Shown: piece by piece, positions 37,408-53,993 of the stretch
How positions within the stretch are numbered: the stretch's first letter is position 1
Layout of the letters: every line of letters begins with the position of its first letter
Assembly (NCBI RefSeq): GCF_003315205.1
Contig: NZ_QNRR01000013.1
Span: 131,959-195,958 of the forward strand
Source of the DNA: Roseimicrobium gellanilyticum
Lineage (GTDB): Bacteria > Verrucomicrobiota > Verrucomicrobiia > Verrucomicrobiales > Verrucomicrobiaceae
DNA length: 64,000 bases
Direction: 5' to 3'
Translations under genes and position numbers: made by a program
The notes under the pieces: generated by a model
Database searches by the model: none
What the model was told of the DNA's origin: nothing
What the model saw: only the letters and a program-made list of their open reading frames with translations

Positions 37408-38325
37408 ATGCACTTGCGCCGAATCCTCCCCTCCCTCCTTCCCTGCCTGGCTGCCCTATGTCTGGGCAGCGCGCCCCTTGGTGCCGAATCCCCTGTGCTT
37501 CCGGTCGTGGAGAATCCGGACATGGTCGTCTACCAGCACGATGTGGTCTACGGCCACAAGGACGGCATGGCACTCATCTTCGATGTGGTGCAGCCCCCAA
37601 AGGCCAATGGCGGCGCCATCATGAGCATCCAGAGCGGGGGCTGGTACTCCGGCTGGCGCGACTCCAGACAGATGTTCCCCGCCCTGCAACCTCTCCTGGC
37701 GAAGGGATTCACCGTCTTCGTGGTCTGGCACGGAAGCTCGCCGCGCTATCCCGTGCCGGATGCGGTGGCCGATGTGCGCCGTGCCTCCCGCTTCATCCAT
37801 GCCAATGCCAGCCGCTGGGGCATCGACCCGAATCGGATCGGCGCCTACGGCGGCAGTGCGGGCGGACACCTTGCACTGATGCTCGCCACCACGGGTGACG
37901 ATGGGGATCCCAAGGCGAAAGATCCCGTCTTGCAGGCCAGCAGCCGCATCGCCGCTTCCGTTTCGCTGTATCCGCCCACAGACCTGCGCAAGTGGACCAC
38001 CGAGCCGCCCGAAGAGATTCGCAAGCATCCGAACCTCAAGCCCTCACTCACCTTCGACGCAAAGCTGGAGCCTGAGGTCTCCCCGATTCTGCATGTGGAT
38101 GCGAAAGACGCCGCTGTACTGCTCATCCACGGCGACAAGGACCTGCTGGTACCCATCTCTCACAGCACGAACATCATGCCGGTGCTGCAGGAGCAGAAGG
38201 TCCCTGCGAAGCTCGTGACCATCGAAGGCGCCGCCCATGGATTTAACAAGGAGCAGAATGTGATCGTGGTGCAGGAGATGGTGGATTGGTTTGTGAAGTA
38301 TTTGGGGAAGGCTGCGGGGGCATAA
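37408..38325 (+). CDS. Secreted alpha/beta hydrolase (esterase / peptidase S9-like).
   Basis: Signal peptide. GGSAGG nucleophile motif. Downstream Asp and His (HGDKD…AAHGF). Confidence 0.75.
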
Positions 38326-38500: not shown

Positions 38501-39721
38501 TCACCCCTCCGTCTCCTGATCCGGAATCCGCGTGAAGGCGATGCGCATGGGCGCGTATTCCAAGGCGCCGAGGGCCCCGCCGAAGGTGACGGTATTCTTC
38601 CCGAGGCGCCGGTTCAGCATGTCCATGGCCTGGCAGATTTTCTCGTGGGCGGGATTGTGCAGGAGCAGGTCCGGTGTCACGCGTGAGGCGGGAATGAGAG
38701 GTGCGAAGGTCACGCCGGTGGCCTGTGGTGGGATACCGCCTTTTCGGGGACGGTGTTCCCAGAGTTTTTCCAACGCATCCAGAAACACAAAGGAGTCCTG
38801 CGTTTCTGTGAAGCGGATCTCGCGGGTCCACTCCTGCTTGTCCTCGTACTTGATGAAGGCCTGCAAGCCGGAGGCGTACATGTCCAGCTTCCGCAGGCGG
38901 GTGGCGGCTTTTTGCAGAAGACGATGCGACACGGCGCGCACGCCGATTTCGTTGCGCAGCTTTGTGGGCAGGATATGGGAGTGGCCGATGGTGCGGCGCT
39001 GCGTGGGCGGCAGCTCGGTCACTTCGCCGCGCAGCCAGTGATACATGTGGAAGCCATTGATGCTGCCCCACACGGCATGCAGGGTTTCACGCGACGCCGA
39101 GGTGAGCTGGGCCACGGTGGTGATGCCGTGATCATTGAGACGCCGCTCCATGTTCCGGCCAATGCCGCAGAAGTCGCGCAGCTTCAGGCGATGCAGGCAT
39201 TGTGGGAGGTCGGGCTTCTGGATGAGCGTGAAGCCATTCGGCTTGCCCATGTCTGAGGCGAGCTTGGCCAGGAAACGATTCGGAGCCATGCCCACAGAAC
39301 ACGTCACCACCTCGCCCATCTGGGCACGCAGGGTCTCCTTCACGCGCTGGAAGAACTTCGCGGCGTCTTCCGGTGTTTTGACGTGGTCCGGAAGGCGGCA
39401 CCAGACTTCGTCGATGGACATGACCTCGGCCACCGGCATGAAGACTTCCAGCGCAGTGAGGAAGCGGCGGTGGAACTCCAGGTATAAGGCGGGTCGCGAC
39501 TCCACGAGCACCACGTCCGGGTGCAGTTGCCGCGCCTCCCGCACCCGTGTGCCGGTCTTGATGCCGAATTTCTTCGCCTCCTTGCTGGCGGCGATGCAGG
39601 AGGTGGACTCCGCGACCACCGGCACAATACCGACGGGACGCCCCCTCAGCTCCGGACGTAGTTCCTGCTCCACCGAAGCGAAGAAGCAATCGAGGTCGAT
39701 GATGACATCTCGCGGAATCAC
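38501..39721 (-). CDS. dinB: Y-family DNA polymerase (DinB / Pol IV-like).
   Basis: N-terminal IIDLDCFFASVE and SIDEVW catalytic D/E motifs. ~406 aa. GTG start at 39721. Confidence 0.85.
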   Translation of the reverse strand: MIPRDVIIDLDCFFASVEQELRPELRGRPVGIVPVVAESTSCIAASKEAKKFGIKTGTRVREARQLHPDVVLVESRPALYLEFHRRFLTALEVFMPVAEVMSIDEVWCRLPDHVKTPEDAAKFFQRVKETLRAQMGEVVTCSVGMAPNRFLAKLASDMGKPNGFTLIQKPDLPQCLHRLKLRDFCGIGRNMERRLNDHGITTVAQLTSASRETLHAVWGSINGFHMYHWLRGEVTELPPTQRRTIGHSHILPTKLRNEIGVRAVSHRLLQKAATRLRKLDMYASGLQAFIKYEDKQEWTREIRFTETQDSFVFLDALEKLWEHRPRKGGIPPQATGVTFAPLIPASRVTPDLLLHNPAHEKICQAMDMLNRRLGKNTVTFGGALGALEYAPMRIAFTRIPDQETEG

Positions 39722-39730
39722 GGCCCGAGA

Positions 39731-39752
39731 TTACTGTTCTCGCGAACAGTAA
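39731..39752. promoter_or_regulatory. LexA-type SOS box: TGTTC-tcgc-GAACA inside the 22-bp palindrome TTACTGTTCTCGCGAACAGTAA, 10 bp upstream of the Y-family polymerase start.
   Basis: Perfect dyad. Matches the TGTTC-N4-GAACA motif reported for Verrucomicrobia LexA, and also CTGT-N8-ACAG. Confidence 0.6.
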
Positions 39753-39801
39753 TCAAGCTCGGATTTCACGGTTCTGCCATGCGGTGCCCATGACGGAAAG
39801 G

Positions 39802-39993
39802 TCAAGTCGGCAGCGGCGGATACAGGGGCATCATGCGCAGGCCCGCCGGTCCCAAAGTGTGTCGGACCGGGGGTGGCGGCGCGGAAGAAGAGTAGTTTCC
39901 GGTGCTGGCACAGGAGGCCAAGGTGCCTGAGGCCACGACGACCAGCAGCGAGCGAGTTGCCCAGAAGGTGATTTTCGTTTTCATACGAAGCAC
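39802..39993 (-). CDS. Small putative lipoprotein (63 aa).
   Basis: Signal + lipobox (LVVVASGTLASCAS), Pro-rich tail. Weak. Confidence 0.3.
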   Translation of the reverse strand: MLRMKTKITFWATRSLLVVVASGTLASCASTGNYSSSAPPPPVRHTLGPAGLRMMPLYPPLPT

Positions 39994-40142
39994 CTAAAGA
40001 ATCGTCTGTGTGCGTGGCGGTGGTGGCACTGGGTGCCATATGGTCTTTGTAAGTCTGCCGCTTTTCAAAGTGGTGGCTTGGTTGGAGATGGAGCGGTCAA
40101 AAGTCATAGCCGCTGAAGCCCAAGATAACGCCTTATGTCACT

Positions 40143-40350
40143 CCTCTGGTCTATCGCTTGGCGCGCTTGGTACACCGGTGGGGAGCCGCTGCGCCGGCTT
40201 CCTAACTAAAGCGGGCGGAGGCAGGGCGGAGCATCCGGGTGCCGGCAGCTTGCCACGCGCTAGTTCCACACCGCCCCCGCCCACCTAATTTGGAAGCCGG
40301 CGCAGCGGCTCCCCACCGGTTTTTTGGTTGGCACGGTGGTAGACCAGAGG
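40143..40350 (+). repeat. ~208-bp structured element, a MITE-like or ncRNA candidate. Three nested stems: 11-bp terminal inverted repeats (CCTCTGGTCTA / TAGACCAGAGG), a perfect 28-bp IR (40175-40202 / 40292-40319) followed by TTTTTT, and an inner G-rich/C-rich stem.
   Basis: CCGGTGGGGAGCCGCTGCGCCGGCTTCC vs GGAAGCCGGCGCAGCGGCTCCCCACCGG. A U-tract follows on the + strand. Confidence 0.6.
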
Positions 40351-40614
40351 AATGCGCAAGGGTCAGCATCGCTTCTGTATATTCATCTCCTCAATACGTC
40401 CCCGGCAGTGGTGGCAACGGTGGGCGAGGCAGGCCGAGCACGCGATGGGGCGGAGGTGGAAGCCTGGGTGGCGGTAGATCCGCACACGAGGTGACCATGC
40501 CACAGGCCATGCTTAGAAGAAGCAGCCCCGCGGCCCAACGTGCGATGTTAAAATTCGTTCCTCTCATGATGGGGAGGGAATCGCCGGTGCCGCAGCTTGT
40601 GGTGGTAAGCGCGC

Positions 40615-42024
40615 TCAATCGACCGCGTCCTCGTCCAGCACGACGTGCTTGGGCTTGAGCACGAGATAAAGCACCAAGCCGATTGCGATGATGACGCCGG
40701 CGATGAGGGGTGCCCGTTGCGCTGCGACGTTGCTGCTGTCAAAAGCCTGCTTCACCCGAACGACAATCAATGTCGCACAAACCAGAGCGCCCAAGATGGG
40801 CACTGCCACGGGTACTTCGAACTTCCCCTTCGGCTCTCCTTTGCGACGCTTCAGAATAACCAGAGCCACGTTCACCACGGTGAAAACCATCAACAGGAGA
40901 AGCGAAGTGGATTCCGCCAGTTGCTTCACGTCGGCCATCAAGATGAGCGTGGTTACAATCAGGAAGAGAACAACCACCGCAACGTGTGGAGTTCTGCGCT
41001 TGGGATGAATGCGTCCGATCCATGCCGGAAGGAGCCCTTGAGCACTCATGCCGTAGATCAATCTCGATCCCATCAGATAGTTCAGCAGGGCTGTATTGCC
41101 GATGGCGAAAATCGCGACTACGGCGAACACCTTGTCCACATTGGCGAACCATGGCGCCGCAGCCGCAGCCACGTCCACGAGCGGCGATTTGCTGCTGGCC
41201 AGCTTTTCCCATGGCACCACCGACACCGCTGTGATGGCCACTGCCATATAGATGACAGTCGATGCCATCATTGCCACCACGAGTCCGCGAGGAAGATTTC
41301 GCGGGGCATCTTTCACTTCCTCGCTTACATTTAAAATGTCCTCAAATCCGATAAACGAATAGAAGGTAAGCACCGCTCCCTGCAATACCACCAGTGCCAG
41401 AATGCTCTCCGCACCTGATTTGGCGGGAGGAATCTCCAGGTAATTCACGGATCCCCACCAAGGAATGCCCACTGCGAGGATGAATATGAGACCGCTGGCC
41501 TCGACAATGGTGCAGAGGATATTCACCCACATGCTCTCCCGAATGCCGCGATAGATGACGCTGCCAATGATGAATACCACCCCGATGGCAAGCAATTTGA
41601 TGTCCCATCGAACATCGCCTGACTTCCATGCTTCAGTATCCCAACGAAATGCGTGGAACTTTTCCGCCTGCTCAAGGATCGCCTGCGCGCCAGTACCCAT
41701 GCTCGTGAGACCGCTCATCATCACAGCAATGCCGACGACATACGTGAGCCATGCTCTTCCATAAGCACGCTGGGAGACGTAGGCGGCACCCGCAGCGCGA
41801 GGACAACGGCTCCCGACACACGCGTAGCTAAGACCAGTCAACAAGGCGGCGACCATGGCAGCAGCAAACGCCAGCCACACCGCATTCCCCAGCGAATCAG
41901 CAGCCCGCCCAATCAGAGTATAAATCCCCGCGCCCAACATCGAGCCCAGTCCATAGAGGGCCACCTGCCAGAAGCCGAGGGTTTGCTTGAGCTTCGGTCC
42001 TGTGGAGGAGTGGTCGTCCGGCAT
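40615..42024 (-). CDS. APC-superfamily amino acid permease.
   Basis: 12 TM. N-terminal …GSMLGAGIY… motif typical of the APC family. 469 aa. Confidence 0.85.
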   Translation of the reverse strand: MPDDHSSTGPKLKQTLGFWQVALYGLGSMLGAGIYTLIGRAADSLGNAVWLAFAAAMVAALLTGLSYACVGSRCPRAAGAAYVSQRAYGRAWLTYVVGIAVMMSGLTSMGTGAQAILEQAEKFHAFRWDTEAWKSGDVRWDIKLLAIGVVFIIGSVIYRGIRESMWVNILCTIVEASGLIFILAVGIPWWGSVNYLEIPPAKSGAESILALVVLQGAVLTFYSFIGFEDILNVSEEVKDAPRNLPRGLVVAMMASTVIYMAVAITAVSVVPWEKLASSKSPLVDVAAAAAPWFANVDKVFAVVAIFAIGNTALLNYLMGSRLIYGMSAQGLLPAWIGRIHPKRRTPHVAVVVLFLIVTTLILMADVKQLAESTSLLLLMVFTVVNVALVILKRRKGEPKGKFEVPVAVPILGALVCATLIVVRVKQAFDSSNVAAQRAPLIAGVIIAIGLVLYLVLKPKHVVLDEDAVD

Positions 42025-49107: not shown

Positions 49108-49285
49108 CGTCCCGCTTCCGTTTGAGCACCACCCTCGACAGGCAAAAATCCTTTTTTTGCTTTTCTTTGCTTCGCTTGGCGGCAATTTCTACGTAAAAAT
49201 ACAGCAAAGTTTTCTATTTCTAAGTAGAAATTCGTGGTGGATAAGCCATAGAAACGTAGCATCGTCCATCCCCGCCGCTCGTCTC
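49108..49285 (+). promoter_or_regulatory. Unusually AT-rich promoter region with three copies of a TTTCTAcGTA-like motif, two of them forming a 12-bp IR (AATTTCTACGTA / TAAGTAGAAATT).
   Basis: 49184-49195, 49221-49232 and 49247-49260. Local GC is far below the genome background. Confidence 0.45.
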
Positions 49286-52200
49286 ATGACCCTCATGACT
49301 TCTCCGCAACGCTGGATTGCGGTTGGTGCATGTCTTATCTGCACCAACGGGCTGGCGCATGCTGCGCAGGAAGTTCTCCCTCAAAAACTCGAGTACAACA
49401 AACACATCCGCCCCATCCTGGCAGACCGGTGTTTTCGCTGCCACGGAGCGGATGAACGGGCACGCAAGGCCAAGCTACGGCTCGATGATTTCGACCAAGC
49501 CGTTTCAGCGAAGGCCCTGATTCCGGGAGACGCGGAGCACAGCGCGCTGGTGCAGCGCATCCTCACCGCGGACCAGGAGGATGTGATGCCTCCGCCGGAC
49601 TCTCACCTGTCCCTGAGCGCGGACGAAAAGGCACTGTTGAAACGCTGGGTCGAGGAAGGGGCTGCGTATCAAAAGCACTGGGCATTCATACCGCCGGTGA
49701 TGCCTGCAGTGCCCCAGGTTTCCCATGAGGGGACACAGCCGGAGAACCCGATCGATGCCTTTGTTCTCGCCAACCTGAAGGCACACGGACTCAAGGCAGC
49801 GCCACCCGCAGAGCGTGCGGCGTGGCTGCGCCGCGTCACGTTTGCATTGACGGGTCTGCCACCCAGCACCGCAGAGCTGGAGGCATTCTTCGCAGACACG
49901 TCGCCGGTAGCACGTGAGAAGGTGGTGGATCGTCTTCTGGATGCGCCAGCCTATGGGGAGCATTTTGGAAAACAGTGGATGGATGCCGCCCGCTACGCGG
50001 ACAGCTATGGGCGCCACGAAGATGGCGACATGATCGCATGGCCGTGGCGTGACTGGGTGATTCACGCCTTCAACTCCAATCTGCCCTACAATCGTTTCGT
50101 CGAATGGCAGACGGCGGGAGATCTTTTGCCCGGAGCCACCGTGGAGCAGCGTGTGGCCACCGCCTTCAACCGCTTCTCCCCGCAGTCCAACGAGAGCGGC
50201 AGTGACCCGCTGGAGTTTCGCCTCGACCAAGTGAGTGACCGCGTGCGAGTGAATGGCCTGGCATTCATGGGACTCACCATGGAGTGCGCGAAGTGCCACG
50301 ACCACAAGTACGATCCCATCTCCCAAAAGGAGTATTGGCAGATGGCCGCGATGTTCGACAACATCGAGGAAAATGGCGTCTACTCGCAGTACTGCCCGAA
50401 GGCCGTGCCCTCGCCGTCCATCCTGCTGCCAAACCAGGCGGAACAACTGCGCCTCGGTGCCTTGCAATGGCAGATCGCAGCAGTGGAACGTGAGCTCGAT
50501 GACATCAAAAAGCGCGTGCGCCCCCAGTACGATGCGTGGATCGCCGCGAATGGTGTGCCCGGAGAGCTGACCCCCGGCGCGTGGAACCGGGTAAAAGGCT
50601 GGTTCGGTGGGGGTGATATCGCTCCCTACAAGCCGCAAGCCAAGGGGCGCTTCCTCTTCGATGACGCGAAACCCAAGGGCGGCAAGGACGTGGTCAACAA
50701 CGCGAACAAGAAGAAGCCCGGTCGTGAGCGTGCCAAATTGGAGTCCATCGAAGGACCCCCAGGACGGGGGCGCGCGGTGCTGCTGAAGGGGGATGACGAA
50801 ATCACCTTCCCGGGGCTCGGCGAGTATCACAAGCACGACCGCTTCAGCTTTGCTCTCTGGATGCAACCGCGGGAACATCGCGACCGCGCGGTGGTGATCT
50901 CCTGGTCACGCGGCGGACTGGATGATGGCCGTGGATATGAAGTGCTGCTGGAGAATGAAGTGCCCTCCTTCGCCCTGATGCATTTCCATCCCGGCAATGA
51001 GATCCGCATCCGCGCCAAGTCACCGCTGCCGCTGAATCAATGGACCCATTTCGCGGTGAGCTATGATGGCAGCAGCCGCGCCTCGGGCCTGAAGATGTGG
51101 ATCAACGGTGAGCCTGTGGCCAGCGAGACCGTGCAAGATCATTTGCAGAAGGACATCGCCCGGCGTGAGGAGTGGGGCGACATCGATCGCGATGCCATCT
51201 TCTTCGCGCTGGGCGGGCGGTTCCACGATTCACCGCTCAAGAACTGTGCCGTAGATGAGTTCCATGTCTTCAGCCGCTCCCTGAGCGATGGCGAAACCAG
51301 ACATCTCGCCGGGCTGCATGCGACCGCCGATGACTGGTATGACTGGTGGCTGCAAACGAAGTGCCAGGAGTGGAAGGACATGGCGCACTCGGCCATGCTT
51401 CTGCGGAAAAAACTCACCGCCACCACGAATGACGTGCTGGAGATGATGGTAATGCAGGAGCGGCCTGCACTGCGGCCAAGCTTTGTCCGCGTGCGTGGTG
51501 ACTACCGGCAGCCTTCCGCTGAGGTGAAGCCGGGAATGCCGGAGGCCGTGCTCCCCTTCCCGGACAAACTGCCGCGCAACCGTCTGGGTCTCGCCCAGTG
51601 GCTCACCAGTTCCGAGCACCCGCTGACCAGTCGCGTGGCGGTGAACCGGCTGTGGCAGACTGTGTTTGGCCGTGGGCTCGTGGGGACACCAGAGGACTTC
51701 GGCACGCGTGGCGAACTGCCCACCCATCCTGAACTGCTGGACTGGCTGGCCTGCACCTTCACCCAACACGGATGGGACGTGAAGCGCATGGTACGTCTCA
51801 TGGTGCTGAGCGAAACGTTTGGACAGAGCATACGCCCTGAAAACGCGGCCACCCTTTCCCAGGACCCGGAAAACAAACTGCTGGCGCGTGGCCCACACGT
51901 GCGACTGACCGCGGAAGAACTGCGCGACCAGGCGCTCGCGACCTGTGGTCTGCTCAATCCCAAAATAGGCGGTCCCAGCGCGCGTCCGTATGTGCCGGAA
52001 CATTTCTATCAGGAGTCCGGTCTCCAGCAGAGCTACAAGACGGATACAGGGGGGAACCTGTACCGCCGCAGCCTCTACACCTTCTGGCGCCGCACCCTGC
52101 CACCACCGGATCTCGCCGCGTTCGATGCGCCTTCACGCGAGTTCTGCGTGGTGCGTCGTGAGCAGACCACCTCCCCAGCCCAGGCACTCATGCTGCTGAA

Positions 52201-52519
52201 CAACACGCAGTATGTGGAAGCTCAGCGCGTCCTCGCGGAGCGACTGGTAAACGAACATCGCGATGACTCGCAAGCACGCTGCGTGGAAGCGTTCCGCCTT
52301 TTCACGTCACGCGAGCCCACCGGGGCGGAGACCACGGCCATGATGCATCTGCTGGAAGTGGAACTGGAATTTTTCCATGCAAACCCAACCGAAGCCTCCA
52401 CCCTGCTGCACAGCAATGGGCAGGCTCCGGTGAAACAAAACCTGCCTCCCGATGAGGTGGCCGCCACCACACTGCTGGTACGCGCGCTCATGAGTCACGA
52501 CGAATCCCTGCACCGTTGA
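49286..52519 (+). CDS. PSCyt (planctomycete cytochrome-c-like) + DUF1549 + LamG-like + DUF1553 multidomain protein.
   Basis: Signal peptide. CFRCHG haem-binding-like motif. DUF1549 region (…RRVTFALTGLPPS…). ECAKCHDHKYDP is the DUF1553 hallmark. Central concanavalin/LamG-like segment. Confidence 0.85.
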   Translation: MTLMTSPQRWIAVGACLICTNGLAHAAQEVLPQKLEYNKHIRPILADRCFRCHGADERARKAKLRLDDFDQAVSAKALIPGDAEHSALVQRILTADQEDVMPPPDSHLSLSADEKALLKRWVEEGAAYQKHWAFIPPVMPAVPQVSHEGTQPENPIDAFVLANLKAHGLKAAPPAERAAWLRRVTFALTGLPPSTAELEAFFADTSPVAREKVVDRLLDAPAYGEHFGKQWMDAARYADSYGRHEDGDMIAWPWRDWVIHAFNSNLPYNRFVEWQTAGDLLPGATVEQRVATAFNRFSPQSNESGSDPLEFRLDQVSDRVRVNGLAFMGLTMECAKCHDHKYDPISQKEYWQMAAMFDNIEENGVYSQYCPKAVPSPSILLPNQAEQLRLGALQWQIAAVERELDDIKKRVRPQYDAWIAANGVPGELTPGAWNRVKGWFGGGDIAPYKPQAKGRFLFDDAKPKGGKDVVNNANKKKPGRERAKLESIEGPPGRGRAVLLKGDDEITFPGLGEYHKHDRFSFALWMQPREHRDRAVVISWSRGGLDDGRGYEVLLENEVPSFALMHFHPGNEIRIRAKSPLPLNQWTHFAVSYDGSSRASGLKMWINGEPVASETVQDHLQKDIARREEWGDIDRDAIFFALGGRFHDSPLKNCAVDEFHVFSRSLSDGETRHLAGLHATADDWYDWWLQTKCQEWKDMAHSAMLLRKKLTATTNDVLEMMVMQERPALRPSFVRVRGDYRQPSAEVKPGMPEAVLPFPDKLPRNRLGLAQWLTSSEHPLTSRVAVNRLWQTVFGRGLVGTPEDFGTRGELPTHPELLDWLACTFTQHGWDVKRMVRLMVLSETFGQSIRPENAATLSQDPENKLLARGPHVRLTAEELRDQALATCGLLNPKIGGPSARPYVPEHFYQESGLQQSYKTDTGGNLYRRSLYTFWRRTLPPPDLAAFDAPSREFCVVRREQTTSPAQALMLLNNTQYVEAQRVLAERLVNEHRDDSQARCVEAFRLFTSREPTGAETTAMMHLLEVELEFFHANPTEASTLLHSNGQAPVKQNLPPDEVAATTLLVRALMSHDESLHR

Positions 52520-52523
52520 TCCC

Positions 52524-53993
52524 ATGATTGGCTCCCACACCACACGTCGCCAGCTTCTCAGCCGTCTGGGCCTGGGGTTCGGCGGCATGGCATTTTCCAG
52601 CCTGCTCGCGGGGAATGCGTCTTCCCATGACAATCTTGCAGCGATGCCTGCGGGCAACGCACTGCCAGGGCTCCCGCATTTCGCCCCCCAGGCGAAGCGC
52701 GTCATCTTCCTTTTCATGAGCGGTGGGCCGTCCCATGTGGACAGCTTCGATTACAAGCCTGAGTTGCAGAAGCTGCAGGGACAGAGTCTGCCAGATTCCT
52801 TCCGCAAGGGCCGCCAGTCACTGCCCGGCATGTCGGGAAACCAAACGCTCTTCCAGCTGAAAGGTTCCTCCCATCCCTTCACCCGCTGCGGACAGAGCGG
52901 TGCCTGGGTGAGCAATGCGTTTCCGCACATCGCGCGCGTGGCGGATGAGTTGTGCTTTGTGAAGTCGATGGTCTCGGAGTCGGTGAATCACGATCCAGCC
53001 ATCACCTTCATCCAGACAGGCTCCCCCATCGCGGGGCGTCCCAGCGCAGGCTCATGGATCCAGTACGGGCTCGGTCGCGAGAATGAAAACCTGCCTGCCT
53101 TCATTGTGCTCATCTCCCGGAGGTCTGTGGACCAGCCCTTGAGCAGCAAACTGTGGGGCAGTGGCTTCCTTCCTGCGAGATACGATGGTGTGCAGCTTCG
53201 TGCCTCCAAAGACCCTGTACTCTACCTGAGCGACCCTCCCGGCATCCCTCGTGAAGCGAACCGGCGCATGCTGGATGGCCTGAAAGAACTGCAGTCCGTA
53301 CAACCGGGCACAGCGGTGAGTGCGGATGCGGATGCGCGCTGGGAATCCTACGAGATGGCCTTCCGCATGCAGACGGCCATTCCAGACGTGATGGACCTGA
53401 GCAAGGAGCAGTCCCATGTCTTTGATTTGTACGGTCCTGACTCACGCACCCCGGGCACCTTCGCAGCAAACTGTCTGCAGGCGCGCCGACTGGCGGAGAG
53501 AGGAGTGCGCTTCATCCAGCTCTTCCATCCGGGATGGGACCAGCACAGCAACATGGAACAGGACTTCCCCATCAGTTCCCGTGAAGTGGACCAGGCCAGC
53601 GCCGCGCTCATCATGGATCTGAAGGAGCGTGGCATGCTCAAGGATACGCTGGTGGTATGGGGTGGCGAATTTGGCCGCACGCCCTACCTGCAGGGCCGTG
53701 TGGGCAAGGGGGACAAAGGAGGACGCGATCACCATCCGAACTGCTTCACCTTCTGGATGGCCGGAGGCGGCATCAAGCCTGGAATCACCCACGGAGAATC
53801 TGATGAACTCGGATATCATGTGGCACAAACTCCGGTGCACGTGCACGACTTCCATGCCACCATGCTTCACCTCCTGGGCATCAACCACGAACGCTTCACC
53901 TACCACTTCCAAGGCCGCGACTTCCGTCTCACTGATGTCTCCGGCACTGTCGTGAAGGACATTCTCAGCAAAGCCGCCAGTCACGGAGTCTGA
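52524..53993 (+). CDS. DUF1501 protein (sulfatase / alkaline-phosphatase superfamily) with a twin-arginine signal.
   Basis: TRRQLLSRLGLGFGG Tat motif. Canonical partner of DUF1549/DUF1553 genes. Confidence 0.85.
   Translation: MIGSHTTRRQLLSRLGLGFGGMAFSSLLAGNASSHDNLAAMPAGNALPGLPHFAPQAKRVIFLFMSGGPSHVDSFDYKPELQKLQGQSLPDSFRKGRQSLPGMSGNQTLFQLKGSSHPFTRCGQSGAWVSNAFPHIARVADELCFVKSMVSESVNHDPAITFIQTGSPIAGRPSAGSWIQYGLGRENENLPAFIVLISRRSVDQPLSSKLWGSGFLPARYDGVQLRASKDPVLYLSDPPGIPREANRRMLDGLKELQSVQPGTAVSADADARWESYEMAFRMQTAIPDVMDLSKEQSHVFDLYGPDSRTPGTFAANCLQARRLAERGVRFIQLFHPGWDQHSNMEQDFPISSREVDQASAALIMDLKERGMLKDTLVVWGGEFGRTPYLQGRVGKGDKGGRDHHPNCFTFWMAGGGIKPGITHGESDELGYHVAQTPVHVHDFHATMLHLLGINHERFTYHFQGRDFRLTDVSGTVVKDILSKAASHGV

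Follow-up and report, generated by a model that had tools for sequence, protein, structure and literature searches.

The window (the 64,000-nt stretch of DNA analysed here, from the soil bacterium Roseimicrobium gellanilyticum, Verrucomicrobiota) carries on its minus strand a gene for an error-prone DNA polymerase of the Y family, with a perfect palindrome immediately in front of its start codon (Table 1). The R. gellanilyticum proteins RBP37755.1 (the polymerase) and RBP37757.1 (RlmN) match the window exactly, and in the closest other genome, that of Roseimicrobium sp. ORNL1, the gene order is the same and the polymerase is 97% identical. The surrounding genes are of the housekeeping kind: the same strand carries, upstream of the polymerase, genes for an amino-acid permease and RlmN and a small lipoprotein-like ORF, and an esterase and an M29 peptidase lie downstream. 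Because the esterase is convergent, the polymerase gene is monocistronic. We found no imuA, imuB, dnaE2, umuD or lexA in the 64-kb window (a tblastn search with E. coli LexA likewise returned no lexA there); imuA and dnaE2 are absent within 20 kb on either side of the polymerase, and no umuD or yolD partner lies next to it.

Reading the window sequence directly, we located a 22-bp palindrome, TTACTGTTCTCGCGAACAGTAA, at 39731-39752, with 9 nt (39722-39730) between it and the GTG. This confirms the earlier note on this DNA, which had described a perfect palindrome abutting the polymerase start but gave no strand for the gene. An in-frame TAA at 39731-39733, within the palindrome flank, lies four codons 5' of the GTG. 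As the GTG is the first start after this TAA, and the catalytic Asp9 follows shortly downstream, it is the sole possible standard start of the polymerase. Orthologues begin with ATG or GTG at the equivalent position, and more distant ones with ATG. No Shine-Dalgarno sequence is present in the 9 nt preceding the GTG.

Table 1. Coordinates of features at the polymerase locus and elsewhere in the window
Feature	Position	Strand	Details
Esterase, convergent with the polymerase	37408..38325	plus	
Y-family DNA polymerase, 406 aa (RBP37755.1 / WP_113961448.1)	38501..39721	minus	Pfam matches; catalytic residues intact; DUF4113-like C-terminal tail
Polymerase C-terminus, residues about 350-406	38501..38680	minus	Invariant PMRIAFTRIPDxETEG
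Polymerase start codon, GTG; probable 5' end of a leaderless mRNA	39719..39721	minus	In-frame TAA upstream; no Shine-Dalgarno sequence
Putative -10, TAATCT	39728..39733	minus	17 nt past the putative -35; overlaps the 3' flank of the palindrome; read from conservation and spacing
Full perfect palindrome	39729..39754	none	11-nt arms GATTACTGTTC / GAACAGTAATC (39729-39739 and 39744-39754), 4-nt spacer; takes in the 22-mer
LexA operator core TGTTC-N4-GAACA	39735..39748	plus TGTTCTCGCGAACA; minus TGTTCGCGAGAACA	Exact match, matrix score, conservation, gel shift of the orthologue
Putative -35, TTGATT	39751..39756	minus	Abuts or overlaps the 5' edge of the palindrome; read from the sequence
Small ORF, signal peptide/lipobox	39802..39993	minus	Proline-rich tail
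Nested inverted repeat	40139..40354		Inner arms 40174-40208 and 40286-40320; outer arms 40139-40153 and 40340-40354
Small ORF, signal peptide/lipobox	about 40395..40566	minus	Proline-rich tail
PSCyt1/PSCyt2/PSD1 (DUF1549/DUF1553) and DUF1501 genes	49157..53993		Adjoining

We also observed several other features in this part of the window. The two tandem small ORFs upstream of the polymerase encode signal-peptide/lipobox proteins with proline-rich tails (MKTKITFWATRSLLVVVASGTLASCAS..., MRGTNFNIARWAAGLLLLSMACG...), for neither of which a Pfam match was found; the one nearer the polymerase is also present in ORNL1 and at one further orthologous locus (L083). The intergenic DNA between them holds a nested inverted repeat, with inner arms of 35 nt that are 94% complementary around a 77-nt loop and outer arms of 15 nt. 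The window has no further copy of this repeat, ORNL1 lacks it in the syntenic region, and an Rfam search returned only chance-level matches to miRNA models. It might be a structured RNA or an insertion specific to this lineage. Farther along, the window contains an adjoining pair of genes of a kind typical of Planctomycetes and Verrucomicrobia (Table 1), unrelated to the palindrome.

The polymerase and its C-terminal tail

Pfam places the protein in the Y family: it has the IMS core (1.9e-37), the IMS_C little-finger domain (9.3e-11) and HHH motifs, together with the catalytic Asp and Asp-Glu. A 30-member alignment of the family shows no variation at D9, F14, D104 or E105, so the catalytic D/E motifs (D9, D104, E105) are intact, as had been noted from the sequence. 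Of proteins with solved structures, Dbh, Dpo4 and DinB are the closest relatives (~1e-32). Since the protein falls below the cut-off of all ten NCBIfam polymerase models (Pol IV, UmuC), the earlier label "DinB-like" is only approximately right: membership of the Y family stands, but every Pol IV cut-off is missed. Narrower assignments were tried and rejected. As a canonical DinB/Pol IV, the protein scores at best 185.9 bits in NCBIfam against a cut-off of 399. As a UmuC/Pol V, it scores 102.7 against a 431-bit cut-off and has no umuD-type gene (S24 peptidase) adjacent to it, sharing just the DUF4113-like tail. Membership as the ImuB of an imuA-imuB-dnaE2 cassette, which is catalytically dead, was rejected on the intact catalytic residues of the window polymerase and the lack of imuA or dnaE2 nearby.

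The polymerase ends in an extension of ~55 residues. Searched by itself, this tail aligns in its first part with the N-terminal part of DUF4113 (E 6.4e-4), and 22 of the 30 family members have a DUF4113 match (E up to 0.01). The DUF4113-matching stretch precedes the motif listed in Table 1, which is invariant in the family, and visual inspection of this C-terminus revealed no canonical QLxLF clamp-binding motif. The N-terminal region of DUF4113 has been read as an interaction motif resembling the RecA N terminus, and several Y-family groups with a DUF4113/RecA-NT-like extension are LexA-regulated (Timinskas and Venclovas 2019, PMC6511836). Like UmuC, YqjH, YqjW and the other groups described there, the window polymerase joins a catalytically intact core to such a tail; unlike them, it has no adjacent umuD or yolD and lies far below the UmuC cut-off.

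The palindrome, its orthologues and the host LexA

The Verrucomicrobia operator TGTTC-N4-GAACA was defined by mutagenesis and gel shift, and changing a single base in either pentamer abolishes binding in Verrucomicrobium spinosum (Erill et al. 2016, PMC4951493). The core of the window palindrome is a 14-bp dyad with both pentamers intact, 13 nt separate its GAACA from the GTG, and it lies within the promoter region as defined in that study (-250 to +50 of an operon). An exact TGTTC-N4-GAACA occurs once in the 64-kb window, compared with 0.06 expected, while sites with up to two mismatches show no enrichment (16 in the window; expectation 23.6). We trained a weight matrix solely on lexA-promoter sites published for Verrucomicrobia. 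With it, the box in front of the polymerase scores 19.0 bits (the median of the training sites is 19.9); the runner-up in the window, within the permease gene, reaches 11.9 bits, and the best of 50 shuffles reached 18.6. A relaxed motif search and the matrix scan together yielded no second credible box in the 64 kb, and the one-mismatch site at 41601 falls within the permease coding region. The earlier identification of the core with the Verrucomicrobia LexA motif is thus upheld by the exact match, by the matrix score and by gel-shift data for an orthologous V. spinosum promoter (PMC4951493).

In the published work, the extended Verrucomicrobia LexA regulon takes in recA, uvrA, uvrB, two recQ homologues and two Pol IV homologues (PMC4951493), and V. 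spinosum LexA gel-shifts the promoter of one Pol IV homologue, VSP_RS08510 (Front Mol Biosci 3:33, PMC4951493). The site there, AAATGTTCTTGTGAACAGTA, is separated by 9 bp from the start of the ~405-codon gene (PMC4951493, Supplementary Tables 1 and 4, in which the probe sequence is given). We found a metagenomic contig, L103, whose upstream DNA is nearly identical to the VSP_RS08510 probe and whose 405-aa protein shares 65% identity with the window protein along its entire length. Through this link to the probe, the window site is the orthologue of an experimentally validated operator. The two genes are orthologous (405-406 aa) and both belong to Verrucomicrobiaceae, although the genus differs. 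The motifs are alike (AAATGTTCTTGTGAACAGTA in V. spinosum, TACTGTTCGCGAGAACAGTA in the window), and the distance from GAACA to the start codon is 12 nt in V. spinosum and 13 nt in the window, the 20-bp site of the paper being 9 bp off. The window palindrome, with its 11-nt arms, is perfect and longer, and it has a TTGATT at the -35 position, whereas V. spinosum has no recognisable -35. The operator-gene pair in the window is therefore an orthologous instance of a published, experimentally supported pair and in that sense already known; the window adds one species to the published Verrucomicrobia LexA regulon. The earlier note was right that the polymerase stands alone, with no imuA or dnaE2 neighbours, but this is no departure from the regulon, as Pol IV homologues are part of its extended form (PMC4951493).

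The arrangement can also be compared with the SOS box of E. coli dinB (CTGT-N8-ACAG). Each is a standalone gene for a Y-family polymerase with a LexA operator lying over its promoter, which in the window is putative, but the recognition motif differs. The E. coli gene is derepressed once RecA-stimulated cleavage of LexA occurs; it possesses a leader and a ribosome-binding site, and its product lacks a DUF4113-like tail. The earlier note had pointed out that the E. coli-type core is embedded in the window palindrome, and it is indeed literally contained there (CTGT-TCTCGCGA-ACAG). The palindrome flanks outside the 5-nt arms are variable (GTGTTC, AGTGTTC and AATGTTC among the orthologues), and because the flanking C and G are not conserved, we regard the embedded motif as incidental.

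To compare promoters, we used orthologues whose proteins are 97 (L001), 88 (L083), 77 (L084), 73 (L085), 65 (L103), 61 (L086), 60 (L087) and 56% (L088) identical to the window protein, aligned by anchoring on the box. All but the last of these loci, and the V. spinosum probe, carry the box; in these eight promoters, as in the window, 12-13 nt separate it from the start codon. Across the nine, TGTTC and GAACA are invariant, while the 4-nt spacer varies freely (GCGA, GTGA, GCTA, GCTG, TTTA, AAAA, TTTC, TTGT). The loci also differ in the remaining intergenic DNA and in which gene lies upstream. In L083, L084, L086 and L087 the upstream neighbour differs or is divergent, and the offset of the box is unchanged. 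The orthologue at 56% identity has a degenerate site only, TGACCATCTGAACA. At the level of sequence, this comparison confirms that predicted SOS control of the standalone polymerase is a shared feature of Verrucomicrobiaceae, with the box at a constant position in the putative core promoter.

The LexA of R. gellanilyticum is RBP42449.1, which falls into one 90%-identity cluster with the LexA of ORNL1; the earlier reading had made its case conditional on such a homologue, and one is present. We reached it by way of a Verrucomicrobium lexA locus: a genome collection was scanned with the V. spinosum-type lexA promoter pattern, and the product of the locus was used in a homologue search. The scan found Verrucomicrobium, Phragmitibacter and Haloferula loci and no Roseimicrobium locus in the collection; the Roseimicrobium -35 is TTGCC. 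RBP42449.1 is 82% identical to the LexA of Verrucomicrobium sp. BvORR106, with an identical recognition-helix segment (ASQTAAMSHLKALERKG) and near-identical residues 1-60. Its Ala-Gly, Ser (GDSM) and Lys (LKRY) align with A84-G85, S119 and K156 of E. coli LexA. By sequence, then, the host has a Verrucomicrobia-type LexA with intact self-cleavage residues.

The motif at lexA itself had been proposed as a check. The loci compared for this, in place of that of R. gellanilyticum, were those of the sister strain ORNL1 and five related contigs; their lexA promoters contain tandem half-sites, GAACA-g-TGTTC, but no perfect box, a point against the operator reading. The V. spinosum lexA promoter, which has the same arrangement of half-sites, has been validated by gel shift (PMC4951493). 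In Verrucomicrobium, Phragmitibacter and the Roseimicrobium clade, the lexA promoters share a geometry of -35, 17 nt, -10, 6-7 nt and ATG around a conserved GAACAGTGTTCA. What the lexA promoters of the three genera retain (L102 2940-3003, L104-L108, L091 and L098) is limited to the inner half-sites, GAACA-g-TGTTC, which lie after a TTGMC -35 and before the ATG. Some of the lexA gene calls at these loci begin three codons upstream, at an ATG within the operator.

Putative promoter geometry and alternative readings

The putative promoter hexamers of the polymerase gene lie on either side of the operator core (Table 1). A consensus promoter scan reported no sigma-70-like promoter at the palindrome, where TAATCT matches three of six positions and TTGATT is below threshold; our promoter model rests on conservation across species. 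At the -35 position, TTGATT, TTGTGT or TTGACA is present in seven of nine orthologous promoters, and at the -10 position eight of the nine have TAnnnT (TAATCT, TAATTT, TACAAT, TAACAT, TATGTT or TATTAT), with TATTAA in L087. A further 5-6 nt separate the putative -10 from the start codon, and a Shine-Dalgarno sequence is lacking. This geometry is in keeping with the earlier note, which placed the box over the promoter or over the start of a leaderless transcript.

We therefore read the palindrome, with a probability of roughly 0.9, as a LexA operator within the core promoter of a monocistronic gene for a Y-family translesion polymerase, and propose that it acts by occlusion. In R. gellanilyticum we infer the -35 and -10 hexamers, the leaderless start, repression by occlusion and induction by damage. 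According to this model, a LexA dimer would occupy TGTTC-N4-GAACA in the undamaged cell, and, with the box filling the 17-nt spacer between a weak TTGATT and a weak TAATCT, bound LexA would exclude RNA polymerase. Upon DNA damage, RecA filaments would stimulate self-cleavage of LexA at its Ala-Gly bond, the operator would be vacated, and the polymerase gene would be transcribed. The transcript would most probably be leaderless, with its 5' end at or next to the GTG. In some bacteria, GTG-initiated leaderless translation is inefficient, which counts against the leaderless reading. Beyond what the 2016 paper describes, the geometry suggests leaderless SOS transcripts in Verrucomicrobiaceae, and the regulated polymerase is of the DUF4113-tailed type rather than a canonical DinB; neither point alters the current understanding of the SOS response.

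An alternative is that LexA binds the same operator in a 5' untranslated region and acts as a roadblock to transcription from a promoter farther upstream, for example to read-through from the lipoprotein or permease genes. All genes upstream in the window do share the direction of the polymerase, and both the silent promoter scan and the lack of a clear -35 in the V. spinosum orthologue are consistent with this. It is hard to reconcile, however, with a box that stays 12-13 nt from the start codon at the four loci where the upstream neighbour differs or is divergent, with TTGAYW and TAnnnT hexamers that are retained at promoter spacing, or with the corresponding -35/17 nt/-10/6-7 nt/ATG geometry of the clade's lexA promoters, and we consider a roadblock unlikely.

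The palindrome could also act in RNA rather than as a protein site, as a hairpin forming the terminator or stabiliser of the small ORF at 39802-39993. The fold is strong (the 91-nt region has an MFE of -33.3 kcal/mol and a z-score of -3.5), but no U-tract follows the stem (UCUCGGGCC) and a terminator scan makes no call there, so it does not qualify as an intrinsic terminator. The palindrome has no Rfam match. The extended stem of the window is absent from ORNL1, and the box stays with the polymerase gene at loci where another gene lies upstream or the upstream gene is divergent. Moreover, TGTTC and GAACA do not covary among orthologues, and it is the loop that changes: because the arms are invariant and the spacer variable, with no compensatory changes, we interpret the element as a protein-binding dyad and not an RNA stem. 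A role as an RNA hairpin is accordingly very improbable. Chance deserves consideration on the grounds that six of 100 shuffled windows contain an exact TGTTC-N4-GAACA, yet this palindrome sits at the start of an SOS-type gene, the V. spinosum orthologue was validated by gel shift, and the box is exactly conserved in at least seven independent orthologous promoters amid diverged flanks. Because of this conservation across orthologous promoters, we exclude a functionless chance occurrence with near certainty. The LexA operator within the core promoter remains our preferred reading.

Distant homologues and other box types

In a metagenome scan with the polymerase alignment, the homologues listed were all 40-50% identical, and 80 upstream regions were considered. 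None of the 80 homologues listed, at this level of identity, has the Verrucomicrobia box. Ten of them have CTGT-N8-ACAG near the start, mostly as TACTGT...ACAGTA (~0.2 expected, by our own estimate), and one of the 80 has a tandem GAAC-N4-GTTC upstream. These two box types, near distant homologues on metagenome contigs, are known from other phyla. The upstream sequences suggest that LexA regulates the polymerase family in several lineages, through a box of a different known type in each.

A broader interpretation, which we offer tentatively and consider somewhat doubtful, is that the polymerase represents a distinct and widespread Y-family subgroup (~405 aa, with a DUF4113/RecA-NT-like tail and PMRIAFTRIPDxETEG) that has been recruited repeatedly to the LexA regulon with differing boxes, and that in Verrucomicrobiaceae has a leaderless promoter with the operator in its spacer. 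If this were true, the polymerase could be UmuD-independent, RecA-interacting and damage-inducible, and unfamiliar palindromes near some distant homologues could mark undescribed LexA motifs.

Recurrent palindromes that we were unable to match to any described LexA motif were observed upstream of a number of these homologues (L012, L016, L022, L030 and L069; L018 and L026; L061, L075 and L080). The kinds seen are AATACA-nnn-GTATAAT (ATAC-N4-GTAT) followed by a CTTGCGC...GCGCAA hairpin; TAGTGTAT-N4-ATACACTA; and AGTGAACATAAT(T)TCACT. These may be the LexA boxes of other phyla.
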